Source: Escherichia coli
GTDB taxonomy: Bacteria; Pseudomonadota; Gammaproteobacteria; Enterobacterales; Enterobacteriaceae
Reading direction: 5' to 3' (one strand)
Assembly: GCF_017348835.2 (NCBI RefSeq)
Contig: NZ_CP071375.1
Length of the DNA stretch: 64,000 nt
Under the pieces are notes generated by a model. It did not search any database, was not told the origin of the DNA, and saw only the letters and a program-made list of their open reading frames with translations. This document shows, piece by piece, positions 29,865 through 49,231 of the stretch (position 1 is its first letter; each line of letters opens with the position of its first letter). The position numbers were made by a program, and so were the translations under genes.

Positions 29865-32012
29865 TTACGCCAGTGCCGCTTCGCGCAGGCGAGTTTTCAA
29901 CTTGTTGTACTCGTCAATCACGTACTGCTCGGCGGCGCGCTGATCGGCGATCGGCTCGACGCGCACGGCGCAGTATTTGTATTCCGGCGTTTTCGTAATC
30001 GGGCTTAAGTTTTCGGTAACCAGCTCGTTACAGGCACCAATCCACCACTGGTAGGTCATGTAAATCGCCCCTTTGTTCGGACGATCGCTGACCTGCGCAC
30101 GGGTGATAATTTTGCCTTTACGCGAGTGCACCCAAACCAATGCCTCATCTTCAATACCCAGACGTTTGGCGTCTTCGGTATTGATTTGTGCGTAGCCAGG
30201 TTCATCAGCCAGCGCCGCCAGTGCCGCACAGTTACCGGTCATCGAACGGCAAGAGTAGTGACCAACTTCACGCACCGTTGACAGTACCATCGGGTACTCG
30301 TCGGTGAGTTTGTCGATTGGCGCTACCCAGTCGCAGGTGAAGAACTGCGCCAGACCGTTCGGGGTATCAAACTTCTCTTTAAACAGATAAGAAGTCCCCT
30401 GATCGGCATCTGAAGTATCGCGGCAAGGCCACTGAATGAAGCCCAGTTCGCCCATTTTCTCGTAAGTCGCACCGTAGAAATCCGGGCACAGATGACGCAA
30501 CTCATCCCAGATCTCCTGGGTGTTGTTGTAGTGCATCGGATAACCCATACGGGTGGCGATTTCACTGATGATTTGCCAGTCCGTTTTCAGATCCCATTTC
30601 GGTTCAACTGCTTTGAAGAAACGCTGGAAGCCACGGTCAGCCGCAGTAAACACGCCTTCATGCTCGCCCCACGACGTTGACGGTAAAATAACATCCGCCG
30701 CCGACGCGGTTTTGGTCATAAAGATGTCCTGAACGATGACCAGTTCCAGATCTTCAAAGGCTTTACGTACTGCCGACAGCTCCGCGTCAGTTTGTAGCGG
30801 ATCTTCGCCCATAATGTACGCGGCACGCACTTCGCCATGCGCTGCGCGGTGCGGCAGCTCGCTGATGCGATAACCGGTATGAGCAGGCAGGCTTTCCACG
30901 CCCCAGGCTTTGGCGAATTTCTCGCGGTTAGCCGGATCTTTCACGTACTGGTATCCCGGATACGTATCCGGCAGCGCGCCCATATCGCAGGCACCCTGCA
31001 CGTTGTTCTGACCACGAACCGGGTTTACACCCGCATGCGGCTTACCGAGGTTACCGGTCAGCATCGCGAGGCTGGTCAGAGAACGCACGGTTTCCACGCC
31101 CTGGTAGAACTGGGTTACACCCATGCCCCACAGGATGGCGGCGCTTTTCGCCTGGGCATACATCCGTGCCGCCTGACGAATCTCACTGGCGCTGACGCCG
31201 GTGATATCTTCAACCGACTCCGGCGTGTAGCCTTCAACGATTTTACGATACTCTTCAAAGCCTTCTGTACGGGAAGCGACGAACGCTTTGTCGTACAAAT
31301 TTTCTTCAATAATGACATGGCCCATCGCATTCAACAGCGCGATGTTCGAGCCATTTTTCAGTGCAATGTGCATGTCAGCAATGCGCGCGGTTTCAATTTT
31401 GCGCGGATCGCAGACGATAATTTTCGCCCCGTTACGTTTAGCGTTAATTACGTGATTCGCTACGATTGGGTGGGAATCCGCCGGGTTGTACCCGAAAACG
31501 AACACTAAATCTGTATTATCAATTTCGTTAATAGCATTGCTCATTGCGCCATTACCGACCGATTGGTGCAGACCTGCAACCGATGGTCCGTGTCAGACAC
31601 GAGCGCAGCAGTCAACGTTATTGGTACCAATAACGGCGCGCGCAAATTTTTGCATTACATAGTTGGTTTCGTTACCCGTACCACGCGAGGAGCCGGTCGT
31701 CTGGATGGCATCCGGACCGTACTTCTCTTTGATGGCGCTCAGGCGCTCGGCAACGTAATTCAGTGCCTCATCCCAGGAAACAGGTTCGAGTTTGCCGCCA
31801 CGCTGGCGACGGATCATGGGGGTTTTCAGGCGCGGGGTCAGGATCTGGGTATCGTTAATGAAATCCCAGCCATAATAACCCTTCAGACACAGGGTACCCT
31901 GGTTGGTTTTCCCCTGCGCTGCCTCCGCCCGGACGATTTTGCCGTTATCGACGATCAGGTTGATTTTGCAACCTGATGCGCAATAGGGGCAAACCGTGAC
32001 GACTTTTTTCAT
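29865..32012 (-). CDS. fdhF: Formate dehydrogenase H, selenocysteine-containing molybdoenzyme
   Basis: Two ORF-track pieces are one 715-codon frame joined through an in-frame TGA at 31593-31595 (codon 140, reads ...CCARV-U-HGPSVAGLHQSVGNG...); N-terminal CPYCASGC Fe-S motif. Confidence 0.95.
31545..31592 (-). promoter_or_regulatory. SECIS (selenocysteine insertion) element immediately 3' of the fdhF UGA
   Basis: Position immediately downstream of the recoded UGA; bacterial SECIS elements lie within about 40 nt 3' of UGA; structure not folded here. Confidence 0.7.
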
Positions 32013-32063
32013 CGGTCTCGCTCCAGTTAATCAAATCACGCATACGCGCTCTCGACTACAGTA

Positions 32064-32079
32064 TGCATCTTTTATGCCA
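32064..32079 (-). promoter_or_regulatory. Sigma54 -24/-12 promoter of fdhF
   Basis: Minus-strand TGGCATaaaagATGCA with GG-N10-GC spacing, about 50 bp upstream of the fdhF ATG. Confidence 0.75.
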
Positions 32080-32209
32080 CATTTTATTTGGGGTCATTCC
32101 CTGATATTACGGGCACTATTTATTCAAAACTCTGACGAAAAACAGGCTGTCGTCAGTTTTGACGTGACGAAACGAAATACCGCGTGACAGCCATCACGCG
32201 GCAGACATT

Positions 32210-33676
32210 TTATTTTTTCTCGACGACGGGACCTGCCTGATACCCGCCGCCCAGCGATTTCATCAACTGAATGCTTTGGATCACCCGGCGGCTGTCCAGC
32301 ATCAGTAATGACATCTCTTCGGCAAGTACTGGCAACCGGGCTTCAGTGGCCTGTAAGCGGCTGGTTAAGCCGCGCTGATAGGCGGCCTCGGCAGCGCGCT
32401 GGGTGAAGAGCGTTGCTTCCACGCGTTCAGACTGCATTTCTCGCTCGTCGTTGAGCGTTTGCAGACGCGTGCCGTTGACGGCAACGTCACGCACCGCGTT
32501 CAGTACTGACTGGTTGTAACGTTCAATCATCATGTTGCTGGCGGCGCGCGTACCTTCGAGATTGGCATTCAACCGTCCACCGTCAAACAGCGGCAATTTC
32601 AGACCCGGGATGAAGTTGAACTGGCGACTGGTTTTTTTGAATAAGGTATCCAGGTGGATGGAGTCCAGACCGAAAAACGCTTTGATATCAAAGCTTGGGT
32701 AGAACAGCGCCCGCGCGGAATCCACCTGATCTAATGACACCTGAACATACCAGCGCATCGCTTGCAGATCCGGGCGTCTGGCGAGCAACTCATAAGAGAG
32801 TGTCGCCGGAATGCCAGTCTGGACTTGCGGTAATGCCACCGGTTTGATCTCCGGCATATCGCTGGCTCCCGCGCCAATCAATGCGCGCAGAGATTCTCGC
32901 GTTTCGGTGATTTGCCCTTTAACGGCAGCAATTTGTTTATCGACCGCCAGAATCTGTGCCCGCGCGCCGTGGAAAGGTACTTGCGCTTCCAGACCGTGCG
33001 CCACTTTACTCTGGTGCGCTTTCACCGCGTAATCAATCACATCGCGAGTTTGTTCTAACAGATCGAGCATCTGATAGCTGGCCTGCATACTGTAATAAAG
33101 CTGCGCTACGCCCGTGGTCAGCGATAGCTCTACTGCTGCGGTTTCTGCCAGCGCGGCATTATGCGCGCCAATGGCGGCGGCAACCGCTGAGCGATGCACA
33201 CCCCACAAATCAAGATCCAGTCCGGCAAACAAACCGACTGTGGCTTCCGTATAGTACGGCCCGTCCATACCCAGTGCTGGCGCATCCATTGAATAAGGGC
33301 TTAAAAAGCCGTTCGCCGAGACGCGTTGGCGGTTGAGCATCCCTAACGCTGCGACCTGTAATTGTGAACCGGCATCTAACAAATCGGCCTGGGACTGCGC
33401 TTTTTCTTCCCGCAGTTTCGCTTCGGCGAGGGTGTGTGAACCGCTTAGCGTCCGCTGGATCAGGGCATCCAACTGCGGGTCATTGAGTTGTTTCCACCAC
33501 TGCGCCTGCGGCCAGCCGGAGCTGGCAAGATGAATATCATCGGCCAGTTTGATTTGTTCCGGTTTGAGCTGTTGATGAGGCGCAGAATCCTTGCGTACCA
33601 GGGCACAGCCGGAAATCAGCGTCGTGCTGCCGAGAATGCTGCACAACAGCAGACGTGAAAGTTGACGATTGATCAT
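32210..33676 (-). CDS. mdtP: Outer-membrane efflux lipoprotein (NodT/OMF family)
   Basis: 488-aa ORF with lipobox (LISGCA). Confidence 0.92.
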   Translation of the reverse strand: MINRQLSRLLLCSILGSTTLISGCALVRKDSAPHQQLKPEQIKLADDIHLASSGWPQAQWWKQLNDPQLDALIQRTLSGSHTLAEAKLREEKAQSQADLLDAGSQLQVAALGMLNRQRVSANGFLSPYSMDAPALGMDGPYYTEATVGLFAGLDLDLWGVHRSAVAAAIGAHNAALAETAAVELSLTTGVAQLYYSMQASYQMLDLLEQTRDVIDYAVKAHQSKVAHGLEAQVPFHGARAQILAVDKQIAAVKGQITETRESLRALIGAGASDMPEIKPVALPQVQTGIPATLSYELLARRPDLQAMRWYVQVSLDQVDSARALFYPSFDIKAFFGLDSIHLDTLFKKTSRQFNFIPGLKLPLFDGGRLNANLEGTRAASNMMIERYNQSVLNAVRDVAVNGTRLQTLNDEREMQSERVEATLFTQRAAEAAYQRGLTSRLQATEARLPVLAEEMSLLMLDSRRVIQSIQLMKSLGGGYQAGPVVEKK

Positions 33677-35724
33677 TGCGTGGCTCCTTGTGCCTGTTCC
33701 GTGGCGGGCGTTAATGCCGGGGCTGTCCAGTCTGGCAAGCGGGCGAAAAGCTGGCAGACGTGTTGCTCCTGTTTTAATAAGGTGGGCAGGATGGCCTGCG
33801 AGGCGGGTGTCTCTTCAAGCGTTATTTGAGGAGAACGGCTGAGTGCGGTTGCCAGACCGGCAGCGTATTTTTCCAGGGCGTCGGCAAACTGACCTGCTCT
33901 GTCCGGCTGTAGTGCGTTATCCAGCGCCTGCGCCGAGTTCCAGGTGGCATCCCAGGCGTGAAGAAGATCGCGGCCCTGACGAATAACCGTTTGCGAACGT
34001 TCAATCAGTAAGGCGCGTTCTTCGCTGTCCAGTTGACGCTCCAGCGCCACGCGTTGGCACATCTCTTCACAGGCATTAAACGCCGCATGCAGACCTATAC
34101 GAATTTGCAGATAAGTGCGCAGAGCCGTGACTTCCTGCTGGCGTGGGATCCGCATTACTTTACTTAACATACCCAGCGCGACAGCCAGTTTTTGCGGCAG
34201 CGTGCGCGCTTCACTTTCAGGCCAGACAAAGGTGTAAATCACCGCGGACACCACGGTACCAATGATGATACCCAGGGCGCGATCGCGAATTTCCACCAGG
34301 TCGTACACCGGGCCAAAAACGTTTTCGAGCGTGGCGAGCGCGAAGGTGACCACCATCTGTGTGCCGATATAAGAAGAGCGTTCAGAGCTGGTGGCAATCC
34401 ATGCGCCCAACAGGAAAATCGGTGCCAGCACAAACAGCAATTCGACAATATTGTCCAGCCAGGGCATGACCAGTAGCGTGAATAACAGCGCCAGAATCGC
34501 GCCGCAAAAGGCCCCGCCAAAACGCAGCACCATCTTCTGGTACGATGAACCGACATTCGGATTAGCGACGATCACGCAGGTCAGCATACAGGTGTGAATG
34601 CCTTCCCAGTCCACGCCGCTGTAGAAGGTGTAACAGATCAAACAGGCGAGCAGCGTTTTTACCGCGTAGCGCATATAGTCTGGATTGGTAAAAGCATCGG
34701 CGACCATTGATGGCGGTTTGGCGGCGGGCGTTGGCGGCGTATTCGGGTCCATCTGACCCAGTTGTAACAACGTCTGGCAGATATTCTCCAGGTTACATTC
34801 CCGTGCCGCCATCGCTTCACTTTCACTGATCCGCCAGTCGCTTTGCCAGCACTGACCTTCGGTAATGGCATGCTGCAGCTTGTTGATTTCTGAAGCTAAT
34901 TTTTGTCGGAATTCAATAATTGCCTGAGAATCAGCAAAAGAGGTGGGATCGTAGCGATTCAGCGTCGAGTAAATGTAGGTTACCGTTGCCACGCAGCTTT
35001 GCCACCATGCGCTTTGAGTTCGCCAGTTGGCATCGTCCGCGAGGCAAAAGACATTGAGTTTTTGTAGCGCCAGCGCCTCTCTTTCAATCCGCGTTTCGGG
35101 TAGCGGTGCGAGGCTGTCCGTCAGGTGGCTAATGGCATCATCAAGCCGATCATTAAGCGCTTGATGCATTTGCGAAATGGCACGACTGGGAAACCACAGT
35201 ACGCCGATTAACGTCATTAATAACGTCGGGTAGAGGCCAACAACGATACACCACAGCGTTAAGCGCACGACCACTTCCGGATAGTCGAGCATGGCGGGGA
35301 AGGTTTGCCCATAAATGGCGACAATGGCGACAGCGAAAAAGACCAGTCCCAACCGATGGGTGCGCATCAAAAACATACAGCCCATCAGGATCGGCCCGGC
35401 GATGATCAATCGGATCAACGGTTCGCCGTATGACCATTTGTAGATCAAAAACAGGCTGCCGATCTCCAGCACCGTGGCAACCACAAACAAGATCGCGACA
35501 AATTTGGTGTAAAACGCGTTCGACTGAATACCGTAAAACAGCACTGCCAGCGATAACGCCACGAAAGGGATCTCAAAGGTCATCGAGATCAGAATCACCA
35601 GCAGGCAGCCTACCCAGAGTTGCACAGTCTGCGGCACGCGGCCTGGTCGCCGCTCGCTTAACTCTTCATGAAAGAACGCCAGCAGCCTGACCACCGGTAA
35701 TGGCAGGGAGTTGAGCGCGCTCAT
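33673..35724 (-). CDS. mdtO: Efflux pump membrane protein (FUSC/aromatic acid exporter-like)
   Basis: 683-aa ORF with two hydrophobic domains; 4-nt overlap with mdtP. Confidence 0.92.
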   Translation of the reverse strand: MSALNSLPLPVVRLLAFFHEELSERRPGRVPQTVQLWVGCLLVILISMTFEIPFVALSLAVLFYGIQSNAFYTKFVAILFVVATVLEIGSLFLIYKWSYGEPLIRLIIAGPILMGCMFLMRTHRLGLVFFAVAIVAIYGQTFPAMLDYPEVVVRLTLWCIVVGLYPTLLMTLIGVLWFPSRAISQMHQALNDRLDDAISHLTDSLAPLPETRIEREALALQKLNVFCLADDANWRTQSAWWQSCVATVTYIYSTLNRYDPTSFADSQAIIEFRQKLASEINKLQHAITEGQCWQSDWRISESEAMAARECNLENICQTLLQLGQMDPNTPPTPAAKPPSMVADAFTNPDYMRYAVKTLLACLICYTFYSGVDWEGIHTCMLTCVIVANPNVGSSYQKMVLRFGGAFCGAILALLFTLLVMPWLDNIVELLFVLAPIFLLGAWIATSSERSSYIGTQMVVTFALATLENVFGPVYDLVEIRDRALGIIIGTVVSAVIYTFVWPESEARTLPQKLAVALGMLSKVMRIPRQQEVTALRTYLQIRIGLHAAFNACEEMCQRVALERQLDSEERALLIERSQTVIRQGRDLLHAWDATWNSAQALDNALQPDRAGQFADALEKYAAGLATALSRSPQITLEETPASQAILPTLLKQEQHVCQLFARLPDWTAPALTPATEQAQGATQ

Positions 35725-36755
35725 TATTGCGGCTCAAGATTAGCGACTGCCGAAGCGCCGATGCGGAACATTTCCGGGTCAGGTTTATCAACCATGATTT
35801 TGACCGGAAAACGCTGGGCAACGCGGACCCAGTTAATAGAACGAGAAACTTTCGGCAGGCCGCCCAGCACCAGGCCGCCGTCATCCGGTAGCACGCCGTA
35901 GCCAATTGAATCCACTTTACCCTCGAAAGTTTTGCCGCTGTCACTCATCAGGCGAATCGTTGCGGGTGTACCTGAGCGAATATTTTTCAGATCGGTTTCG
36001 CGGAAGTTGGCGATCACGTACCAGTGACGAGTGTCGATTAGGGTAAAAATAGGGCGCATGGCAGAAGCAAATTGCCCGACGGAGGTTTTGAGGGAAATGA
36101 CCCGGCCATCAAACGGCGCGCGAACGGTCGCCATTTCCAGATGCAGTTTGGTCAGGGCAATATCCGCTTCGACCGCCGCACGTTGCGCCACCAGCGCATC
36201 GACGCCGCTGACGGCGCTGGCGGCTGACTGCGCCTGTAACAATACGGCATTAAGATCGGCTTCTGCGGCGCGCTGCGCGGTCCTCGCACGGTCAACGTCT
36301 TCCGCTGAGACAAAACCTTCTTTCAGTAATGGCTCGGTGCGGCGTAATGTATCTGTGGCCTGTTTCGCGGCGGCACGGGCTTTTTCTACCGTGGCATTAA
36401 CCGAGTCGGCACCAAACTGTTGCGCGTCAACGCTACGCTGGGTGAGCATAATTTGCTTATCCAGCGCCGCGAGGGAGGCTTCGGCTTTCGCCAGATTGGC
36501 TTCGTACGGGCGCGGGTCGATGCGGAACAGCACATCGCCCTGTTTCACCGCCTGGTTGTCGGTGACCGCCAGTTCTACAATGCGACCGCTGACTTCCGGC
36601 ACCACATCAATGGTATCTGCTGACGCGTAAGCGTCATTAGTTGATGGCGCACTGTCTATGCGCCAGATAACGAAAACAAGGGCAACCAGCGCCAACGCAA
36701 CCACTAACAGAGCAGGGAATTTACTGCGAGGAGCTTTTTTCGGCGTACTTTCCAT
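35724..36755 (-). CDS. mdtN: HlyD-family membrane fusion protein
   Basis: 343-aa ORF; single N-terminal TM, coiled-coil, beta-barrel C-terminus; 1-nt overlap with mdtO. Confidence 0.92.
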   Translation of the reverse strand: MESTPKKAPRSKFPALLVVALALVALVFVIWRIDSAPSTNDAYASADTIDVVPEVSGRIVELAVTDNQAVKQGDVLFRIDPRPYEANLAKAEASLAALDKQIMLTQRSVDAQQFGADSVNATVEKARAAAKQATDTLRRTEPLLKEGFVSAEDVDRARTAQRAAEADLNAVLLQAQSAASAVSGVDALVAQRAAVEADIALTKLHLEMATVRAPFDGRVISLKTSVGQFASAMRPIFTLIDTRHWYVIANFRETDLKNIRSGTPATIRLMSDSGKTFEGKVDSIGYGVLPDDGGLVLGGLPKVSRSINWVRVAQRFPVKIMVDKPDPEMFRIGASAVANLEPQ

Positions 36756-36773
36756 GAGCGCGTCTCAAATAGA

Positions 36774-37049
36774 TTAGAAAAATGCCAGCCAGAACAGCAT
36801 GGCGTAGAGAGCAAAAAGGGCGGTATAAATAATTCCGACAAATGCCAGATTGATATTTGCCCGCTGAATAATTCGCCTCGTGATGAGCGTCAAAATAAGG
36901 CTGGCAATGGCGCAGAAAAACCAGCTGGGATAATAAGCGCCGATCACCGGGATTGCCGGAGATAATGAGCATCCCGAAACCATGAAGACGGGAATTATCC
37001 AGGCTGTTTTTTTGAGTTGCATCGCCATGCGAGAGAGAACTGTTGGCAT
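36774..37049 (-). CDS. ytcA: Small lipoprotein/membrane protein
   Basis: 91 aa from MPTVLSRMAMQLKK with lipobox (VSGCS). Confidence 0.7.
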   Translation of the reverse strand: MPTVLSRMAMQLKKTAWIIPVFMVSGCSLSPAIPVIGAYYPSWFFCAIASLILTLITRRIIQRANINLAFVGIIYTALFALYAMLFWLAFF

Positions 37050-37257
37050 ATTAAATACATCCTGTCTGCTGCGAACAATATCTGTAGTGAATATCAATAT
37101 CCATTGAAGGCGTCAGTATGGCTATTTTCTTGATGAATAAAAATAGCTTTATTCAGCCACCGCATTCATAACTTATATATTTTATTTATTAATTGGCTGT
37201 ATATATTTTTAAAATAAATGCTTTTGGGGGCTTCAGCGCCCCCAAAAGCGAGTGACA

Positions 37258-39243
37258 TTAATTTGGGGTTACGATATTCACCCACAAATCGAAATTATCC
37301 AGACAAGCAATAATTTCTTCCAGTTTCGCGCCATTGCCAATAATTTTGGCTTTCTTCGCTTTTACCAGATCCGCCATTTGGGCTTGTCCGGTCAGCACGG
37401 CGTGCAGATCTTCACGGCTGATGTAGAAAGAGGCGTCAGCTTGGGATTGCAGCGTTTTACGGTAGTTAAGCACGCTATCGTTCAGCGTCAGGTTGAGGTT
37501 ATCGCCGTTGCTCATATTGAAGTTCAGGCTGATATTTTTACCCGCGGCTTTCGCGCTATCGAGGCGAACGGACATAAAGTCGAACAGCATTTCGACCGAC
37601 ATTCCGCGAATGGTGTCCGGGGAACCGGTGGTGCCGTGGCTGAACTTATGCACCCCTTCGCGCAGCTCTTTCGCGCCGGTCAGGTAGAAACCGCGCCATG
37701 TGGCGGACTCGGCCTGATAGCCCAGCTGTTCAAAGTTATTCGCTTGCAGATTCTTCGCGACCTGGTCACCCGGGTTGGCGGCAATCACCTGTTTCAGCAG
37801 TTCTGCCGACCAGCGGTAATCACCTTGCTTGTTCGCTTCTTGCGCCAGGTTGATGACACGGGCAGAACCGCCCAGCGCTTTCACGTAACGTTTGCCCATC
37901 TCTACCTGACCATACGGATGCAGGTTAGCCGGGGTACCGTCGTAATAGCCAAGATAGAAGTTATACACCGCGCGGGCGTTGTGGCTGACAGAACCGTAAT
38001 AGCCGCGGCTGGCCCAGTTATTGGCAAGCGCAGGCGGCAGCTTAATCATGTCGCCGATTTCATTCATGGTGTAGCCCTGGTTCGCCAGGTGCAGGGTCTG
38101 GTCGTGAATATACTTGATGGTATCGCGATATTTACCAATATAATCATTGATATGCTTATTGCCCCAGACCGGCCAGGTGTGTGGCATAAACAGCACTTCC
38201 GCGTCGTTACCCCACATATCCAGCGTTTCGTTCAGGTACTCGGTCCACTTGCTGGTATCGCGGGTTTTCGCGCCGCGCAGAGTGTAGAAGTTGTGCAGGG
38301 TATGCGTGGCGTTCTCGGCGGTACACAGGGCTTTCAGGGCCGGAATATAGAAGTGCATTTCGGCTGGCGCTTCGCTACCTGGAGTCATCAGGAAGTCAAA
38401 CTCCAGGCCGTCGATAATCATCTTCTCGCCAGTTCTGACGATAGTTTTAGTCGGTGCAATAATGCTCGGGTCGCCCGTTGCCAGCGTCACGCCAAGGCCA
38501 TTACCCACGTTGCCTTGCGCGTTGTGCGGCAGTAACAGACCGTAAGAGTAGAGCGCACGGCGGCTCATGATGTTACCCGCCAGCACGTTTTCGCTGATGG
38601 CTTCGTCCATAAAGCCAGCAGGGGCAATCACCTGAACTTTGCCGGATTTAACATCGGCTTCAGAGATAATGCCTTTCACGCCACCATAGTGGTCGGTGTG
38701 GCTGTGAGTGTAGATAACGGCAACAATCGGTTTTTGCGGACGATGCTGGAAGTAAAGGTCAAGTGCGGCTTTTGCGGCAGGCGGCGTCACCAGCGGGTCG
38801 ATAACAATAATGCCTTTCTCGCCCTCAACGAACGTAATGTTAGAGATATCCTGGCCGCGCACCTGATACATTTTATCGGTGACTTTGAACAGGCCAGAAA
38901 TACCGTTGATTTGCGACTGACGCCACAGGCTGGGGTTTACGGTTTCCGGCGCTGCGGCATTAATATCAAATTTGTAATCGTCCGCGCGGTAGTAAACTTT
39001 ACCGTTCGCATCACGCAGAATACCTTCATCCAGCAGCGGGGCGATAAATCCACGCTGGGCATCGTCAAAATCCTGACGATCGCTAAACGGTAATGATTTG
39101 GCGTAATTCTGATTAACCTGTTGGGTATATTGAGTGGCGGCTTTCGCTTCCTCTTTCGCGTAAGCGGTATTTACCATCATGCCGCTGACGGCGGTTAACG
39201 CAATAACAATCCGGCTCAAACGGAATAACCGAGAGTTATTCAT
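37258..39243 (-). CDS. yjcS: Putative alkyl/aryl-sulfatase (metallo-beta-lactamase fold)
   Basis: 661 aa from [10 protein letters not shown]; signal peptide; HSHTDH metal-binding motif. Confidence 0.9.
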
Positions 39244-39535
39244 ATAAATCTCCATTTATCATTTATGTCGTAAATATGTAATCCATGCAAAATACGTCAT
39301 TTAAAGCTGGCGTTATCATAATTGGGAAATTGCGACTTTAATAAGTGGAAGTGTGAGCGGAACGCGCCATTTTATTAGGCATTTGTGCTGAAGAGGGAAA
39401 AGTACGCGAATTTATTATCTCTGCAAATAATATGAGGTGTTTTATATATTTATTATATATATTGTACTTCGGCAAATACTGAGCACAATTAATCAATGCA
39501 ACCGGTGTTTTTTATTAAAAAACGTACCGGAGCAA

Positions 39536-39813
39536 TGGGCGGTCATGTCGCTGGCACCGCAGGATTCTGTGTTGCTGTGCCAGCCTTTTATTCATGGTCA
39601 ATGAGTGAGGGGATTGATAAAGAAACCAGGTCGTCAGAGCGCACTGATTATCCGCATTACGCCAGTGAAGTTGCACTGGCTTTTGGTTCACGAGTGGTTG
39701 GCCTCGAACTGGCAAAAATGATTGTGGATGCGTGGCTGGGCGCACAGTACGAAGGTGGTCGTCATCAACAACGCGTGGAGGCGATTACGGCAATAGAGCA
39801 GCGGAGAAATTGA
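39536..39813 (+). pseudogene. rpiB: Ribose-5-phosphate isomerase B remnant: degraded 5' end and an internal in-frame deletion
   Basis: IDKETRSSERTDYPHYASEVALA resembles RpiB residues about 31-53, joined directly to the C-terminal FGSRVVGLELAKMIVDAWLGAQYEGGRHQQRVEAITAIEQRRN; the roughly 54-residue block between them, which holds the catalytic cysteine, is missing. Confidence 0.7.
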
Positions 39814-39881
39814 GATTCATCCACTACTTGCATGGATGAGTAATGACTAATGTGGATAGAGTTTCTTTTTGAGGTTGGCTA

Positions 39882-40211
39882 ATGAAACGCTTTCCGCTAT
39901 TTCTTTTATTCACCCTGCTCACGCTGTCCACCGTTCCGGCCCAGGCCGATATTATCGACGACACCATTGGCAATATTCAGCAGGCGATTAACGATGCTTA
40001 TAACCCTGACCGTGGGCGAGACTATGAAGATTCGCACGACGACGGCTGGCAGCGTGAAGTGAGCGACGATCGGCGCAGACAATATGACGACCGCCGCCGC
40101 CAGTTTGAAGATCGTCGCAGGCAACTGGACGATCGCCAGCGCCAGCTTGATCAGGAGCGTCGGCAGCTGGAGGATGAAGAGCGGAGAATGGAAGATGAGT
40201 ATGGGCGATGA
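39882..40211 (+). CDS. yjdP: Secreted small protein with charged DDRRRQ-type repeats
   Basis: 109-aa ORF; signal peptide MKRFPLFLLFTLLTLSTVPAQA; C-terminus of R/Q/D/E repeats. Confidence 0.85.
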   Translation: MKRFPLFLLFTLLTLSTVPAQADIIDDTIGNIQQAINDAYNPDRGRDYEDSHDDGWQREVSDDRRRQYDDRRRQFEDRRRQLDDRQRQLDQERRQLEDEERRMEDEYGR

Positions 40212-40253
40212 GGTAGGCTAGGGTGAGGGGGCCAGCGCGCACATTCCCTCTCA

Positions 40254-41012
40254 TCACGCCACCCCAATCTCCATCCCATCAAACCCGGCTTCAAACCCCG
40301 ACGGCAGTGCGTTTTCCATCAGCCACGCATCAAACTGGTGGCTGATATGGGTCAGAACCACGCGCGGCGAGCGGATAACCTGATTCAGCGCAAGCACGGT
40401 ATTTAAATCACAGTGATTACGCGGTGCATCCTCGCGCGGCGGGTGGCTGCAATCAATCACCATTACCTGCGGCTGATTATTGCGTAAAAATTTCAGCGTT
40501 TTTTCCGGCAAGCCAGCGGTGTCAGACAGCCACGCCACCCGGCTGTGCGCCGTTTCCAGCAGATAACCGAAGGTCAGTTTTGAGTGGTTGAGCGGCAGGG
40601 GCGTGACCTGCAACCCCTGCAAATCAAACACCACAAACGGTTCTACCGTGTGGCTGAAATCAAGCAGGCCCGGATGTTTAAACAGATCGTCGCAGCCCTG
40701 TTCATCCGGCGGGCCGTAAACCGGGATCGTATCGCCCACGCCCCAGCGCAGCGGAAACAGCCCCTGGACGTGATCCATATGGTAGTGCGTCAGCAAAAAC
40801 TGCTGGAACGATCCGGGCGACCAGCGATCGGCGAGATCGTGCAGCCCGGCGTCGATCAGGGTGATCGCCTCGTTAAACTTCACTACGCCGCTGCACGGCT
40901 GGCGGCGATAGTGCGGCGAGCGCCGCGCTCTGGCGCAGGCCGCGCACTCGCAGCCCCATGCCGGAACGCCCTGTGCGCCGCCGGTGCCGGTGAGCGTGAG
41001 GGTCAGGCTCAT
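40254..41012 (-). CDS. phnP: Phosphoribosyl 1,2-cyclic phosphate phosphodiesterase (metallo-beta-lactamase fold)
   Basis: 252 aa from [18 protein letters not shown] motif. Confidence 0.93.
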
Positions 41013-41013
41013 G

Positions 41014-41448
41014 TTACAGCGCCTTCGTGAAGCGGAAGTGGCTCTGCTCGTAGCCTTCACGCAGGTAAAAACGGTGCGCGTCGTGGCGCTTCACGTTGGT
41101 CGAAAGCTCGGTCATTTCGGCCCCGGCCTGGCGGGCTTCTTCTTCTGCCCACGCTAGCAATTTACTGCCGACGTTCAGGCCGCGCGCCTGCGGCATCACC
41201 ACCAGCTCCTGAATTTCGCCGATCCAGTTGACATGATGCAGATGAAACTGCAAATGCAGGCCGATCATACCGACAACTTCGCCATCCAGCAGCGCCAGAT
41301 GGTAGCGCATGTTTGGGTCACGCAGGTTGGCGTTAAAGCCCACGCGAAACGCGTGATGGTCAAACTCCGCCTGTTTTAGCTCACAAATCAGCGCGTAAAC
41401 CGCGTCGGTGTCGTACTGTGTGGCCGGGCGAAGCTCACAAGCAGGCAT
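41014..41448 (-). CDS. phnO: Aminoalkylphosphonate N-acetyltransferase (GNAT)
   Basis: 144-aa [24 protein letters not shown]... Confidence 0.93.
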
Positions 41449-41992
41449 GGTGTTTCTCCTTCTGATGGATCAGCGTCAGCAGCGTGTCGACCGACTGGCG
41501 CAGGCTGCCGTCATTATTGAGCGTATGGCAATCCTGAGGAGTATAGCGGGCGGCGCGCGCCAGCCGGGCGTTAATTTCACTGGCGTTTTCACGACCACGG
41601 TTTTCCAGGCGCTGGCGCAGGATCTCTGGCGACACCTGTAAGCAGATGGGCAGCAGCGCCGATGCATAGCGTGCCCGCGCCTGTGGCAGATGGGCGCGTG
41701 AGCCGTTGACCAGCACGTCGAATCCGGCGTGCAGCCAGAGGTCTATCTCGACGCCGACGCCATAATACAGGCCGTTGGCGTGCCAGCTTAAGGCCAGTAG
41801 GTTCTGCCCCGCGCGGGTAAAAAACTCCTGCTCGCTCAGGGCGATATGGTTTTCGATTCCGGCGCTGGCGTCGCGCGTGATGTAGCGATGTGCCACCAGT
41901 AGCTGAGTTTGTTCCCGCAGGCGGAGTTCCGCCAGCAGGCTATCTTTCCCGGAGCCGGACGGCCCCATTAACCAAATCAGTTTTCCCATCAT
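41435..41992 (-). CDS. phnN: Ribose 1,5-bisphosphate phosphokinase
   Basis: 185-aa ORF with P-loop GPSGSGKDS. Confidence 0.93.
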
Positions 41993-43128
41993 CAGAACAC
42001 CCTTTTACCCTGACGCCAGACGTGGTCGATATGAATGTGATTGCCCTTGCGATGCGCCAGCACCAGGTCCGCGCGTTTGCCCTCGCCAATCACCCCGCGA
42101 TCCTGGAGATTAAGCGCCTGCGCTGGATTTTTAGTCACCAGCTTCACCGCCTGCGGCAGCGTAAAGCGGTTGCTCTCGTCATCGGCGACGCGGAACGCCG
42201 CATCCAGCAGGCTGGCGGGGTAGTAGTCGGAAGAGAGGATATCCAGCAGGCCAAGCTGCGCCAGTTCACTGGCCGCCACGTTGCCGGAGTGCGAGCCGCC
42301 GCGCACGATATTTGGTGCACCCATCAGCACGTTCATGCCATGCTTGCGCGAGGCTTCCGCCGCTTCGAACGTAGTGGGAAATTCGGCGATCACACTGCCA
42401 AGCTGGTGGGATTCGGCAACGTGGGCGTGGGTGGCGTCATCGTGGCTGGCGAGCGCAATGTGTCGCGCGCGGCACATTGCGGCGATGGATTCGCGATTTG
42501 GCTGCGACCAGCGTGCAGCAAGCGCCAGCTGTTCCTCTTCATACTGCTGCATCTGCGCATCAGTAAGCGAGTATTTACCCTGATAATACTCGCGATACTT
42601 CTCGCGATTGGCGAACTGGCGCTGGCCCGGCGAGTGGTCCATTAGCGACACCAGCGTCACCGGCTCGCGCAGCACCAGTTTTTCAAACAGCGGCAGCGTG
42701 GTGTGATGCGGCAGTTCGCAGCGCAGATGCAGACGGTGCTCGGCGCGGTTGACGCCGCGTTTCTGCGTCTCTTCGATGGCGTTGATCATCTTCTCCAGAT
42801 TCTCCAGCCGATCGCCGCCGTCGCGCACGTCGCCAATTGCCACGGCGTCCAGTACGGTGGTGATGCCGCTCGCCACCATCAGCGCGTCGTGGCTGCTCAT
42901 CGCCGAGTGGGCAGGCCAGTCAACTTTCGGGCGCGGGGTGAAGAATTTATCCAGATTATCGGTATGCAGCTCAATCAGCCCCGGCAGCAGCCAGCCGCCT
43001 TCGCCGTCCATCGCCTCCGGCAGGCGGCTCTGGCTTTCGGCAAAGGCGCGGATTTCGCCATCCTGCATCTTCAGCGAACCGTGTACGACTTCGTTTTCCA
43101 GCACCAGTTTAACGTTATTGATAATCAT
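41992..43128 (-). CDS. phnM: Amidohydrolase-family triphosphate diphosphohydrolase
   Basis: 378-aa ORF; HTD metal-binding motif near N-terminus. Confidence 0.93.
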
Positions 43129-43805
43129 GCAGAGGCTCCCATTGGGTGCAGGCGGTCGGCGACATCATTGCGTACGGCTTCGTCATGGAAGATGCCGACG
43201 ATGGCTGCGCCACGGGCTTTGGCTTCGCGGATCAGTTCCACTACGGCGGCGCTGTTTTTAGCGTCCAGCGAGGCGGTAGGTTCGTCGAGCAGCAGAATGG
43301 GATAATCGACGATAAAGCCGCGGGCGATGTTGACGCGCTGCTGTTCGCCGCCGGAGAAGGTCGATGGTGCCAGGTGCCACAGGCGTTCCGGCACGTTCAG
43401 GCGGGTGAGCAGACGCGCGGCTTTAGCGGCGCAGACTTCACGCGGAACGCCGGTATCGAGCAGCGGTTGCATCACCACTTCCAGTGCTGAGATACGCGGG
43501 ATGACGCGCAGAAACTGGCTCACCCAGCCGACGGTGGTTTTGCGGATTTCCACCACTTTGCGCGCTGGCGCAGTGACCAGGTCAACCCATTCGTCGCCGT
43601 GTTTGATCTGGATTTTCCCTTCGTCGGGCAGATAGTTGGCGTACAGCGAGCGCAGCAGGGTTGATTTGCCGCTGCCGGAGTGGCCGTGGAGCACCACGCA
43701 TTCGCCCGCGTTGACGGTGAGCGAGGCACGTTGTAAGACGGGCAGGCGCACGCCGTTTTGCTGGTGCAGGATGAAGGTTTTACTGACGTTTTGTACGTTA
43801 ATCAT
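43125..43805 (-). CDS. phnL: C-P lyase ABC-type ATPase subunit
   Basis: 226 aa from [11 protein letters not shown]; Walker [10 protein letters not shown]; the ORF-track upstream extension covers a REP and is not coding. Confidence 0.92.
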
Positions 43806-43825
43806 TTTTCGCCTCGTGGTTCGGG

Positions 43826-43912
<87 letters not shown>

Positions 43913-43915
43913 GGC

Positions 43916-44674
43916 TCAATTCTGCAAAACCGATGACACCAGCAGCTGGGTGTACGGATGATGCGGGTCGTCGAGCACGCGGTCGGTTAACCCACTCTCC
44001 ACCACCTGCCCCTGCTTCATCACCAGCAAACGGTCCGCCAGCAGGCGGGCGACGCCTAAATCATGGGTGACAATCACCACCGCCAGGTTCAGCTCCACCA
44101 CCAGGCCGCGCAGCAGGTCGAGCAGGAGCGCCTGTACCGACACATCCAGCCCGCCGGTTGGCTCGTCCATAAACACCAGCTTCGGATGCGTCACCAGGTT
44201 GCGGGCAATCTGCAAACGTTGCTGCATGCCGCCGGAAAAGGTGGTCGGCAGGTCGTCGATACGGTTGGCGGGAATTTCCACCTCTTCCAGCCACTTCTGC
44301 GCGGTGGCGCGAATATCGCCGTAATGACGCGCCCCGGTCGCCATCAGCCGCTCGCCGATATTGCCGCCTGCCGAGACCTGGCGGCGCAGGCCGTCGAGCG
44401 GATGCTGATGCACCACGCCCCATTCGGTGCGCAGCAGGCGACGGCGGTCGGCCTCGCTCATGCCATAGAGGGAACGGTTTTCATAGTGAATCTCCCCCTG
44501 CTGCGGCGTCAGACGCGCGGAAATTGATTTCAGCAGCGTGGTCTTCCCGGAGCCGGATTCCCCGACAATGCCCAGCACTTCCCCCGGCCATAAATCAAAA
44601 GAGACATCGCTAAAGCCTTTGCCCGGCGCGTAAAGGTGGGTCAGGTTATTGACCGAAAGTAACGGTTGATTCAT
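43916..44674 (-). CDS. phnK: C-P lyase ABC-type ATPase subunit
   Basis: 252 aa from [15 protein letters not shown]; Walker [10 protein letters not shown]. Confidence 0.93.
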
Positions 44675-45516
44675 TGGCTTTTCGCCTCGCTCTGTTGGCG
44701 GCAATAATCGGTATCGGAGCAGACAAACATGCGGTTTCCGGCGTCATCCAGCACCACTTCATCAAGATAGCTGTGGGTCGATCCGCAGATGGCGCACGGC
44801 TCATCCCACTGCTGAACGGTGAACGGGTGATCCTCGAAATCGAGGCTTTCCACGCGGGTAAACGGCGGCACCGCATAGATGCGCTTCTCACGCCCCGCGC
44901 CGAACAGTTGCAGGGCGGGCATCATGTCCATTTTCGGGTTATCGAATTTCGGGATCGGCGACGGGTCCATTACGTAGCGCCCGTTCACCTTCACCGGATA
45001 GGCGTAGGTGGTGGCGATATGACCGAAGCGGGCGATATCTTCATACAGCTTCACCTGCATCACGCCGTACTCCTCCAGCGCGTGCATGGTGCGGGTTTCC
45101 GTTTCGCGCGGCTCGATAAAGCGCAGCGGTTCGGGGATCGGCACCTGGAAGATAATTATCTGATCTTCGGTCAGCGGCGTTTCGGGGATGCGGTGACGCG
45201 TCTGGATAACCGTCGCATCGTCCGTACATTCCGTGGTGTTCACCCCGGTCACGCGCTTAAAGAAGTTGCGAATCGATACGGCGTTGGTGGTGTCATCCGC
45301 GCCCTGGTCAATCACCTTCAACACGTCGCTTTCGCCAATCACGCTGGCGGTAAGCTGTATGCCGCCGGTTCCCCAGCCGTACGGCATTGGCATCTCGCGC
45401 CCGCCAAACGGTACCTGATAACCGGGGATCGCCACCGCTTTTAAGATGGCGCGGCGGATCATGCGTTTGGTCTGCTCGTCGAGGTAGGCAAAGTTGTAGC
45501 CGCTCAGATTAGCCAT
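44671..45516 (-). CDS. phnJ: Alpha-D-ribose 1-methylphosphonate 5-phosphate C-P lyase (radical SAM-like)
   Basis: 281 aa from MANLSGYNFAYLDEQTKR; C-terminal CAICGS...CSDTDYC cysteine motif. Confidence 0.93.
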   Translation of the reverse strand: MANLSGYNFAYLDEQTKRMIRRAILKAVAIPGYQVPFGGREMPMPYGWGTGGIQLTASVIGESDVLKVIDQGADDTTNAVSIRNFFKRVTGVNTTECTDDATVIQTRHRIPETPLTEDQIIIFQVPIPEPLRFIEPRETETRTMHALEEYGVMQVKLYEDIARFGHIATTYAYPVKVNGRYVMDPSPIPKFDNPKMDMMPALQLFGAGREKRIYAVPPFTRVESLDFEDHPFTVQQWDEPCAICGSTHSYLDEVVLDDAGNRMFVCSDTDYCRQQSEAKSQ

Positions 45517-46567
45517 GGTTCTGCTCCTGTTGCGGACGTTTGAGTAGCTCCAGTTCGGCCTGGAAATCGACGTAGTGCGGGAGTTTGAGGTGCGAGACAA
45601 AGCCTGCGGCTTCGACGTTGTCGGCATGCGCCAGCACGAACTCTTCATCCTGCGCCGGGCCTGTCGCGTGCTCGCCGTACTCCGGAGCCTGCAACGCACG
45701 ATCGACCAGCGCCATCGCTTTGCGCTCGCTCATGCCGAACACCAGCCCGTAGCCGCGCGTGAAATGCGGCGGTTCATCTGGAGGGTCGATAAAACCGTTG
45801 ACCATTTCACACTCGGTCATCAGCAGTTCGCCGACGTTCACCGCAAATCCCAGCTCTTCCGGCACAATCGACACGTCGATGTAACCACTGCGGATCTCGC
45901 CCGCGAACGGGTGATTGCGTCCGTAACCACGCTGGGTGGAGTAGGCCAGCGCCAGCAAATAGCCTTCGTCGCCGCGCATGAGCTGTTGCAGGCGGGAAGA
46001 ACGTGAGCAGGGGTAAACCGGCGGCGTGCGGGTGATGTCATCCGGCTGTGCGCCGCTATCCTCTTCAAACTTCGCCAGCCCCTGACGCGCCAGCAGGCTG
46101 AAAACGTGCGGCGACGGCTGTTGTTCGCTGTCGGCGGTGGTCAGCGTCGGCGCTTCGCCGTTTGCCAGCAGGGTGAAATCGAGCAGGCGATGGGTGTAGT
46201 CGTAGGTTGGGCCAAGCAGTTGGCCGCCGGGAATGTCTTTATAAACGGCGGAGATACGCCGTTCGAGACGCATCCCGGTGGTGTCGAGCGGCTCGCTTAC
46301 CGCGAGTTTCGCCAGCGTGGTGCGGTAGGCGCGCAGCAGGAAAATTGCTTCGACGTTATCGCCGCTGGCCTGTTTCAGCGCCAGCGCCGCCAGTTCGCGG
46401 TCGGCAATGCCGCCTTCGGTCATCACGCGATCTACCGCAAGATTAAGCTGCTGTTCAATCTGGGCGACGCTCAGTTCAGGCAAATCGGTATCGCCCCGGC
46501 GTCGGCTCTCTTGCAGGGCGTGGGCGGCATCGATCGCCTTTTCGCCCCCTTTCACGGCAACGTACAT
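45509..46567 (-). CDS. phnI: C-P lyase core complex subunit PhnI
   Basis: 354 aa from [18 protein letters not shown]; start overlaps phnH stop. Confidence 0.93.
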   Translation of the reverse strand: MYVAVKGGEKAIDAAHALQESRRRGDTDLPELSVAQIEQQLNLAVDRVMTEGGIADRELAALALKQASGDNVEAIFLLRAYRTTLAKLAVSEPLDTTGMRLERRISAVYKDIPGGQLLGPTYDYTHRLLDFTLLANGEAPTLTTADSEQQPSPHVFSLLARQGLAKFEEDSGAQPDDITRTPPVYPCSRSSRLQQLMRGDEGYLLALAYSTQRGYGRNHPFAGEIRSGYIDVSIVPEELGFAVNVGELLMTECEMVNGFIDPPDEPPHFTRGYGLVFGMSERKAMALVDRALQAPEYGEHATGPAQDEEFVLAHADNVEAAGFVSHLKLPHYVDFQAELELLKRPQQEQNHG

Positions 46568-47151
46568 CAGCACACCTCCACATGAGTGGTTCGGGGGATA
46601 GCCAGCAGTCGCTCGCCGCAGGTCAGGATCAGGTCGATGCCGAGCGGGAACGGGTGCGGGCGCTCGGTGAGTTCGTGCAAAATGCACTCCGGCAGCTGCG
46701 GGGCGATCATTCGTTCTTCGGCAATGCCCGCGCCGGTGAGACGCAACATGCGCCCGCCGCTCAGGCTGGCGACCTGTAAAATCAGCGTTGCGCCCGCTTC
46801 CGGCGCAACGGCGGTGCCGGTGGAAAGGGCGTTAAGCTGTTCGCTGGAAATCGCCTCATCCGTTACCGCGAAGGTCGCCTGTTCCGGCTGGCTGACCAGC
46901 GGCGCGTTGGTATGAAAACGCAGGCTCTGGCTGACGATATCGTTACTTAATGGCGCGGAAAGCCACACCGGCGTGTCGTTATCGGCCAGCGTCAGCAGCA
47001 CGCTGGTGGTGGCGATATTCAGCGGCTGCCAGCCGCGTTTGAGCTGATGCAGGGCGACAATCACGCCCGGCTCGCTCATGGCCTTTAACAGGCGACGAAA
47101 ACTGTGCTGGGCATCCTGCACAGGAAGCATAAAAGCGGTTTCCAGGGTCAT
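46567..47151 (-). CDS. phnH: C-P lyase core complex subunit PhnH
   Basis: 194-aa [32 protein letters not shown]... Confidence 0.93.
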
Positions 47152-47600
47152 GCGTTGTCTCCGCGAACCATCGTAAAGAAGTCGACCCGGCTGGCGTTCA
47201 CTTCGGCCTGGCGTGCGGCAATGCGTGCCATACGGTCAGCGTCCAGCGGGGCAATAAGGGTTTCTGATAAGTTTTGAAAGTGGCGAGATTGCTGCATCAG
47301 CGCGTCGATCAGCGCGCAGCGTTCGGCGTGCTGTTTGTCGCGCCCCAGCACCCAGCTGTAGCCGAGCGTGCCGTCAGTCAGGCGTACTGCGGCGCGGGTA
47401 AGCGTGGCGTCGCCGGCAAAAAAGCGTTCGCCGGTGCCGCCCATCCGCGCCTGAATCTGTACCAGGCCAGTTTCAGCGGCGCGGATCACCTCATAGTCGG
47501 CGGTGATGTTCAGCGCGTTCAGGCAGGCTGCCAGTTCTGCCGGTTGGCTGTGTGCCAGTACGGACATCCAGTGCTGGCGGGTCGCGGTATCTGCGTGCAT
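47148..47600 (-). CDS. phnG: C-P lyase core complex subunit PhnG
   Basis: 150-aa [28 protein letters not shown]... Confidence 0.93.
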
Positions 47601-48326
47601 TCAGTGCTCCATAGTAAATTCAATCATGTCGGCGCGCGTCAGGCTGACGGAGTACTCCGCCGGGCTGCTTTCACCGTCACGGTGGTTAAGGGTGCGCACG
47701 CACAGCAGCGGCGACATATTCGGGATTTCAAGACGCTGGCACTCTTTGGCCTGGGCGCGGCGGGCGCTGATCCGCGTCTGGCTGCGGCGCAGTGCAATCC
47801 CCGTTTGCTCGCGCAGAAAATCGTGCAGCGAGCCGCTGTCGAAGCGTTGCAGCGTCGGCCAGAGGGTGAGGTCCGCGAAGTAGTGGTCGATTAAACAGAG
47901 CGCGACGCCGTTGACCCGGCGCAGGGTGCGCAGGTGGATAACGTTCTCGCCCTCGGCGATACCCAGCGCGTCTGCCACGTGACCGGAGGCCGGGCGCAGC
48001 ACAGACAGCAGTTTTTCGCTGGTGGGATGGCTCCCCTGATCCAGCAGGTTCTGGCTAAAACGCGCCTGGGCGTTGAGCGGGTAATCGAACGGGCGCATCA
48101 GCACCAGCACGCCGACGCCCTGACGGCGCTGTACCCAGCCTTTTTCCACCAGTTGGTCGATGGCGCGGCGCAGGGTGTGGCGGTTCACCTCAAAGCGCGC
48201 TGCCAGTTGCTGCTCGGCGGGAAGATAGTCGCCGCAGCGGTAGTGTTGACGAAGCTCCTGCTCAAGTTTTGCGGCTATCTCCTGATAGCGTGTTGGGTAG
48301 CTGGTCGGATGTGTAGACAAGTGCAT
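47601..48326 (-). CDS. phnF: GntR-family transcriptional regulator of the phn operon
   Basis: 241 aa from MHLSTHPTSYPTRYQEIAAKLEQEL; N-terminal winged HTH. Confidence 0.92.
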   Translation of the reverse strand: MHLSTHPTSYPTRYQEIAAKLEQELRQHYRCGDYLPAEQQLAARFEVNRHTLRRAIDQLVEKGWVQRRQGVGVLVLMRPFDYPLNAQARFSQNLLDQGSHPTSEKLLSVLRPASGHVADALGIAEGENVIHLRTLRRVNGVALCLIDHYFADLTLWPTLQRFDSGSLHDFLREQTGIALRRSQTRISARRAQAKECQRLEIPNMSPLLCVRTLNHRDGESSPAEYSVSLTRADMIEFTMEH

Positions 48327-48346
48327 AGATATCAATGCCTCGCTTA

Positions 48347-49126
48347 TCAGATAAAGTGCTTACGCAACCGTTGAGAGAGGAAATCCAGCAGGCTGACCGT
48401 GACGATAATCAGCACCATCAGGGCGCAGGTTTGCTGGAACTGGAAACCGCGAATCGCTTCCCACAGGGTGACGCCGATCCCGCCCGCGCCGACCATGCCG
48501 ACGACGGTCGCCGAGCGGACGTTGGATTCGAAGCGATAGAGGGAGTAGGAGATCAGCAGCGGCATCACCTGTGGCAGCACGCCGTAGAGGATCTCTTCCA
48601 GCTTGTTAGCGCCGGTGGCGCGAATGCCTTCCACCGGGCCGGGTTCGATCGCTTCCACCGCTTCAGAAAGCAGTTTGGAGAGCACGCCGGTGGTGTGGAT
48701 AAACAGCGCCAGCACGCCAGCGAACGGGCCGAGGCCGACGGCGACCACGAACAGCATGGCGAAGACCATTTCGTTAATGGCGCGGCAGGCGTCCATCAGG
48801 CGGCGAACGGGCTGGTAAACCCACCACGGCACCAGGTTTTCGGCGCTCATCAGGCCGAAGGGGATGGAGAGAACCACCGCCAGCGCGGTGCCCCAGACGG
48901 CGATTTGCAGCGTGACGAGCATTTCGGTGAGGTAATCCTGCCACTGGCTGAAATCAGGCGGGAAGAAGTCGGCGGCGAAAGTCGCCATGTTGCCGCCGTC
49001 TTTAATCAGCGTGAGCGGGGCCATTTCCGCGCCCTGCCACGAGACGACCAACACGGCGAGAACAATGGCCCAGCTCAGAAGCGAGAACCAGCTGCGCTTG
49101 GGTGGGGCGATGGTGATGGTTTGCAT
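48347..49126 (-). CDS. phnE: Phosphonate ABC transporter permease, apparently intact
   Basis: Uninterrupted 259 aa from [22 protein letters not shown]...; six hydrophobic segments. Confidence 0.9.
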
Positions 49127-49140
49127 GTTTGGCTCCGGTC

Positions 49141-49231
49141 TGTAGGCCGGATAAGGTGCTTGCACCGCATCCGGCATCAACGCCTGCACATTGTCGGATG
49201 CGACGCCGGGGCGTCTTATCCGACCTACGAT
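49141..49231. repeat. REP pair in the phnD-phnE spacer
   Basis: gtaggccggataaggtgcttgcaccgcatccggca and cggatgcgacgccggggcgtcttatccgacctac. Confidence 0.85.

Follow-up and report, generated by a model that had tools for sequence, protein, structure and literature searches.

Between yjcS and yjdP, Escherichia coli K-12 carries the D-allose genes alsK, alsE, alsC, alsA, alsB and alsR (rpiR) together with rpiB, and in this strain defects in rpiA can be rescued by derepressing rpiB. Strains in which als is absent have been described: E. coli W (ATCC 9637) was reported to be unable to catabolise allose (PMC3032704), and EAEC 042, from which rpiB was reported absent too, was allose-negative in phenotype arrays (PMC2808357). 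Both accounts present a simple absence; remnants of rpiB and alsK, two junctions and a 78-bp insert, the features dealt with below, are not described there (PMC3032704, PMC2808357). The polymorphism and its phenotype are already known, and only the fine structure of the locus appears to be undescribed, which makes it of minor interest.

Here we analyse the window, a stretch of 64,000 nucleotides of an E. coli genome. Going by the published descriptions, it resembles W and 042 in the locus concerned and, by prediction, in phenotype class. Compared with K-12 at the same site, it keeps two blocks of rpiB (121 of 149 codons' worth of positions) and the alsK terminator region, and all seven genes of the als regulon and rpiB are lost or inactivated. 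O157:H7 differs from both in having, at the same site and with the same left boundary near 39405, a D-lyxose island with a two-component system, a sugar ABC transporter, an isomerase, an aldolase and a kinase; the window contains no gene of this set. Sequence comparisons strongly suggest that the segment 39244-39881 is a non-functional scar left by deletion at the als-rpiB locus, derived in all likelihood from an als+ ancestor. The scar allele is a case of ordinary, widespread strain-to-strain variation.

Gene content of the interval

The left flank of the site is yjcS, an alkyl sulfatase gene on the minus strand (37258-39243) whose product is 98.9% identical in amino acids to K-12 YjcS; the right flank is yjdP on the plus strand (39882-40211; 99% amino acid identity to K-12), followed by phnP through phnL. 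Both assignments come from the ORF list and from the PGAP annotation of the identical strain PE164. The two genes are 638 bp apart, as compared with 7,270 bp in K-12, and a tblastn search with the K-12 Als proteins found no als gene anywhere in the 64 kb, in agreement with the first-pass annotation of this DNA, which had described the operon as missing from the site. The transporter, kinase and epimerase genes that would make up a D-allose utilisation locus (alsRBACEK) are not present. Over an 8-kb stretch around the site the window and the pig isolates PE164 and F2_81 do not differ (100% identity), and the nearest complete genomes after these are about 97.8% identical.

The DNA immediately upstream of yjcS (39244-39405) is conserved and common to the als, scar and O157 haplotypes, as seen in a three-way alignment and in a K-12 match of 171/172 nt over 39234-39405. 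It gives way to an AT-rich segment adjoining the cassette (39406-39467), which is homologous between the haplotypes but diverged (49/62 nt against K-12, about 85% against O157). The change is sharp: at 39405 the mismatches to K-12 jump from 1/172 to 13/62 (Fisher p = 1e-7). At the other end the rpiB-yjdP intergenic DNA (39814-39881) is nearly identical to that of K-12, lying within an alignment of 223/225 nt. Further to the right, the spacer between yjdP and phnP is about 100 bp longer in K-12 (L002:17601-17746) than in the window (40212-40253); the extra K-12 DNA contains repeated GGGGAGAGGG/CCCCTC motifs with the look of REP elements, of which the window keeps the last copy only.

Remnants of alsK and rpiB

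Between these flanks the interval is made up of four pieces. The first, at 39468-39545, is a 78-bp insert confined to the scar haplotype, which has no counterpart in K-12, E. whittamii or the divergent Escherichia L012 and which holds the start codon (39496) of the open reading frame discussed below and an A/T-rich hairpin of unexceptional folding (z = -0.9 and -1.4). A dispersed repeat or MITE was considered and rejected, the insert being found at 1,571 places in 1,570 of 5,426 complete E. coli genomes. A search of Rfam gave no match to it, nor was there a true match on plasmids, the matching records being chromosomal sequences mislabelled as plasmids. Derivation from the adjacent AT-rich DNA (z = 2.4) or from the left edge of the O157 island (z = 2.2) was also set aside, the similarity being too weak in either case.

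The second piece, on the minus strand at 39546-39606, is the 3' end of alsK: its stop codon, roughly its last five codons and the downstream hairpin, with arms at 39550-39561 and 39573-39584 (40/52 nt against K-12). Local alignments to K-12 and to the loci L011 and L012 reach z = 13-14, a score that none of 1000 shuffles attained, and the hairpin, inverted repeat I3 of our list, is stable (z = -3.2 and -3.9). Its arms differ from those of K-12 at paired positions (GCTGGCAC/GTGCCAGC in the window versus GTTGGCAC/GTGCCAAC in K-12). On these alignments the assignment to alsK appears solid. The first-pass annotation had seen the codons in this part of the interval as faintly RpiB-like, a view that did not survive comparison with rpiB codons 1-28 (z = -0.3): the codons come instead from the alsK 3' end with its hairpin and from the 78-bp insert.

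The third and fourth pieces, both on the plus strand, derive from rpiB. Codons 29-53 (39606-39681) are diverged, at 68/76 nt against K-12, 67/76 against E. whittamii and 69/76 against L012; they can also be aligned to PDB 1nn4, and they carry two substitutions, G34E and W36R, at positions that are identical in the RpiB of K-12, E. whittamii and L012. The resemblance of this piece to RpiB had been recognised at first pass and is real, although it begins at residue 29 and not, as then given, at 31. Codons 107-149 and the stop codon (39682-39813) are of the usual E. coli type (131/132 nt against K-12). Counted from the junction that joins the two, the stretch 39676-39900, which takes in codons 105-149 and runs on through the intergenic DNA into yjdP, matches K-12 at 223/225 nt, as expected from the earlier identification of the last 45 codons of the frame with the RpiB C-terminus.

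Two junctions separate these pieces. Junction 1 (39603-39609) brings the alsK 3' end to rpiB codon ~29; the alignments leave a microhomology of at most 4 nt, with which exact placement is impossible. The loss at this point amounts to about 6.55 kb (7270 - 638 - 159 + 78), that is alsK through alsR, the rpiB promoter and rpiB codons 1-28. Junction 2 (39676-39681, plus strand) joins codons 52-53 to codons 105-106 at the motif CTGGCT: two K-12 alignments overlap at 39676-39685, where 9/10 nt agree and L52-A53 coincides with L105-A106. The short direct repeat already noted at the join is there, and the loss is of 159 bp, or 53 codons, in frame. CTGGCT occurs at both breakpoints in intact rpiB and a single copy is left in the window, the pattern of a microhomology-mediated (illegitimate) deletion. 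Signs of excision by a mobile element are lacking: the ORF list contains no IS, integrase or transposase frame at the site, no tRNA was found in 30000-50000, and a search for att-like flanking repeats gave only short repeats at chance level. The first impression that there is no IS or integrase scar here was correct.

Because both ends of the als-rpiB block have left pieces in the segment, we favour descent from an als+ ancestor by deletion. Such an ancestor would have lost a stretch of ~6.55 kb that began in the last codons of alsK and reached rpiB codon ~28, and 159 bp inside rpiB (codons 54-106) would have gone by illegitimate recombination at the CTGGCT microhomology, leaving the hairpin of alsK and two pieces of rpiB, which are fused and happen to form a frame of 105 codons. 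The opposite polarity, in which K-12 and its relatives gained als-rpiB as an island and the window preserves the attachment site as it was before insertion, can draw on Kluyvera, in which yjcS adjoins yjdP and phnP, and on Salmonella enterica subsp. arizonae, in which yjcS adjoins phnP, both of them without a cassette; these two outgroups do indicate an earlier acquisition of the cassette. However, a true empty site would hold neither the alsK stop codon and hairpin nor two pieces of rpiB, and chance similarity of these remnants is excluded by z = 13-14 and by 99% identity, respectively. Moreover, 63% of E. coli genomes have als, other Escherichia species carry it at this very site, and att-like repeats, tRNA and integrase are all absent. 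We thus consider that the window can scarcely be a pre-insertion state. As to the two possibilities that the first-pass annotation had left side by side, an old decayed gene and the border of a K-12-specific island, the first fits the retained ends of the block; the second does not agree with the occurrence of alsB in 3,396 of 5,426 genomes.

An intact alsK beside an insert and hairpin of the scar type, as expected of a progenitor, was found neither in the 5,426 complete genomes, nor in the Escherichia and enterobacterial loci compared, nor in 19 metagenome contigs. Two human-gut metagenome contigs, L085 (OGGX01003690.1) and L090 (OIYW01011750.1), have junction 1 with rpiB 29-149 undeleted, a form seen in 0 of the 5,426 complete genomes. 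L090 switches from scar-type to B2-type and then to scar/K-12-type sequence, the first switch falling within a run of 24 nt exactly common to the scar and to Nissle-type rpiB. The two contigs are either a true intermediate or chimeras assembled from mixed strains; since a chimeric assembly would give the pattern of L090, we do not rely on them as proof that the large deletion came first.

On the right-hand side, window positions 39789-39828, covering the last codons of rpiB and the DNA after it, are similar to the end of the O157 histidine-kinase gene (3' side) and to the DNA that follows that gene (L004:27419-27456; local alignment z = 4.4, 2/1000 shuffles). From this resemblance, the right-hand boundary of the cassettes may lie at the very end of rpiB. 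The O157 yjdP is only 92% identical to that of the window.

The 105-codon reading frame

The frame announced at first pass is present at 39496-39813 on the plus strand and is annotated in PE164 as WP_001183282.1, 'RpiB/LacA/LacB family sugar-phosphate isomerase'. It starts in the 78-bp insert, reads the alsK hairpin in antisense and then enters the two rpiB pieces, so that its first 37 codons are insert and antisense terminator hairpin. Aligned to K-12 RpiB and to PDB 1nn4, it keeps 70 of 149 residues (29-53 and 105-149) and lacks 1-28 and 54-104; to the solved E. coli RpiB structures 1nn4 and 2vvr it aligns as two separate blocks. Profile searches place it well below the family: it scores 77.0 bits with TIGR01120 (cut-off 138.65; K-12 RpiB 255.7) and 61.7 bits with TIGR00689 (cut-off 88.3; K-12 RpiB 211.1), and Pfam PF02502 gives a significant match only at its residues 61-97 (37 residues, model positions 102-138 of 138). 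The full-length match above a curated score that membership of the RpiB/LacA/LacB isomerases implies is not obtained. We take the catalytic residues of E. coli RpiB to be Asp9/His10, Cys66/Thr68 and His99/Asn100, all of which fall within the missing stretches, so that the frame is without the catalytic block. It is truncated and also substituted at otherwise invariant residues, the combination that marks a pseudogene, and we read it as one on these alignments.

One may ask whether the frame is nevertheless a genuine new gene, encoding a small chimeric protein with the C-terminal helices of RpiB and maintained by selection. It is open in every 638-bp copy examined, PGAP calls it an intact CDS in nearly all carriers, and its C-terminal 45 codons differ by 0 non-synonymous and 2 synonymous changes between the two haplotypes. 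The openness is, however, only weak evidence against the scar reading because diversity is only 1-3%, the main haplotypes differing by 4 non-synonymous and 4 synonymous changes; all 4 non-synonymous differences lie in the N-terminal part, and recent recombination with intact rpiB alleles explains the conservation of the C-terminal part equally well. Further points against a new gene are (i), the scores below the RpiB cut-offs and the loss of residues 1-28 and 54-104, (ii), the make-up of the first 37 codons, (iii), the absence of a promoter-like site by consensus scan, together with two hairpin-plus-T-run, terminator-like structures inside the frame and (iv), the destruction of the start region in strain HH97. 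A selected gene is, for these reasons, very improbable, and a pseudogene within a deletion scar remains our reading of the frame.

In E. coli HH97 a different sequence of 55 bp (L074:3042-3096) replaces part of the insert and the alsK hairpin, and there is an additional 4-bp insertion. The start of the frame is destroyed, and PGAP marks this further-decayed copy as a pseudogene. The 55-bp sequence is a singleton, with no other match in the 5,426 genomes.

The isomerase name has been given in RefSeq to the frame of the scar under two accessions, WP_001183282.1 and WP_001183287.1, in about 1,570 genomes. Such a name suggests an enzyme, whereas the sequence is below both NCBIfam cut-offs and without the catalytic block; the naming is probably a systematic mis-annotation. 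The remnant should be flagged as a pseudogene in RefSeq, lest metabolic reconstructions count an isomerase.

Distribution of the allele among E. coli genomes

The distribution of the allele was surveyed in 5,426 complete E. coli genomes. Different parts of it give concordant counts: the 78-bp insert and a 241-bp probe spanning junction 1 are each present in 1,570 genomes, junction 2 in 1,574, and at least 80% of the 638 bp in 1,568, so that carriers make up about 29% of the set. alsB is present in 3,396 genomes (63%) and the O157:H7-type 9.5-kb island in 411. The three contents are nearly exclusive of one another and jointly account for 99% of the genomes; yjcS|yjdP is a three-allele hot spot at which als, the scar and the O157-type D-lyxose island replace each other, the scar, with its probable single origin, now being one of three alternatives. 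Since alsB occurs in 3,396 of the 5,426 genomes, BL21 among them, als is not specific to K-12, and intact rpiB is found in Nissle (B2) and in the ST131 strain JJ1887.

Genomes contain the rpiB fragment a single time, the sole exceptions being 4 additional places, each of them on a plasmid; it follows that carriers of the scar essentially never have a second copy of rpiB or als. Eight carriers among the complete genomes and 13 full-length metagenome contigs share the identical 638-bp structure with the same junctions, which indicates that the allele arose once. It exists in two main sub-haplotypes that differ by about 2-3%: that of the window, and a B1 type found in O111:H-, O104:H4 and DEC9B.

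The cassette of O157:H7 (L004:18222-27509, ~9.5 kb), present in 410 further complete genomes, occupies the site that corresponds to window positions 39406-39881 and is unrelated to als. It encodes a response regulator, a carbohydrate kinase, a ketose-bisphosphate aldolase, a D-lyxose/D-mannose isomerase, a sugar ABC transporter and a hybrid histidine kinase. The genomes that remain outside the three classes include IS-mediated deletions. In MSB1_9D (L072:9001-10100), for example, IS903B adjoins yjcS, the cassette through the phn operon is gone and yjdN comes next; yjcS and mdtN are pseudogenes in this strain.

Divergence and age of the scar

The allele is a mosaic of divergence. The window flanks are 96-99% identical to K-12, whereas the interior of the scar is only 71-91% identical to the als alleles compared (K-12, E. 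whittamii and the divergent Escherichia). The hairpin segment is the most distant, at 71-77% against K-12, E. whittamii and L012, which are 87-90% identical to one another in this part; rpiB codons 29-53 are at 88-91% against all three, and the C-terminal piece of rpiB is at 99% against K-12. Divergence shifts significantly at junction 2 (Fisher p = 4e-4). This contrast between interior and flanks suggests an allele that is old or imported. Homologous recombination with other E. coli would have renewed the flanks as far as the sequences remain collinear; the interior, being unable to recombine with als+ alleles, would have preserved old or foreign sequence, with some later decay, although the segments on which this scheme is built are short.

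The scar allele might thus have been imported from a diverged Escherichia lineage, or might predate the diversification of E. coli and persist as an old presence/absence polymorphism. Besides the divergence of the interior and its abrupt end at junction 2, such an origin would account for the failure to find, in the 5,426 complete genomes, any intact E. coli rpiB at least 95% identical to the N-terminal fragment, for the residue E49, common to the scar and to the divergent Escherichia L012, and for the 2-3% that separates the two sub-haplotypes. On the other hand, the diverged segments measure only 52-76 nt, relaxed constraint after the deletion would lengthen the branch as well, and a survey of 5,426 genomes, 62 genome loci and 19 metagenome contigs yielded neither donor nor progenitor. 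We regard an imported or ancient allele as a genuine possibility that falls short of an even chance. A fuller scheme, which we put forward as speculation and judge rather unlikely as a whole, would have the scar arise before the phylogroups, or arrive from unsampled Escherichia, with the interior as a fossil of a lost als lineage; the polymorphism of als, scar and D-lyxose cassettes would then have been kept by niche-dependent selection on the use of rare sugars at a recombination hot spot.

Consequences and related loci

Deletion of als-rpiB, the reading preferred here, carries predictions for the physiology of the carriers. Strains with the scar, including the B1 pathogens O104:H4 and O111, would be expected to be D-allose-negative and would have no RpiB as back-up for RpiA; the rescue of rpiA defects by rpiB would be impossible in them. 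Outside annotation and strain physiology the importance of the finding is slight, yjcS|yjdP being a small, clear-cut case of a locus at which sugar cassettes alternate.

Alternative contents are found at this locus beyond E. coli too. E. whittamii and the divergent Escherichia L012 have als at this same position, and a lyx island is present in a Citrobacter and in Escherichia sp. E1V33. Taken with the outgroups that have no cassette, these comparisons indicate that yjcS|yjdP is an old swap point for sugar cassettes. A Pluralibacter MAG (L030:922-1196) shows a lyx-type cassette followed by a C-terminal rpiB fragment (residues 64-148) and yjdP. It is an independent truncation of rpiB at this site in another genus and hints that cassette swaps break inside rpiB. 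In Superficieibacter electus (L013:10001-14077), two yjcS-like alkyl sulfatase genes lie in tandem.
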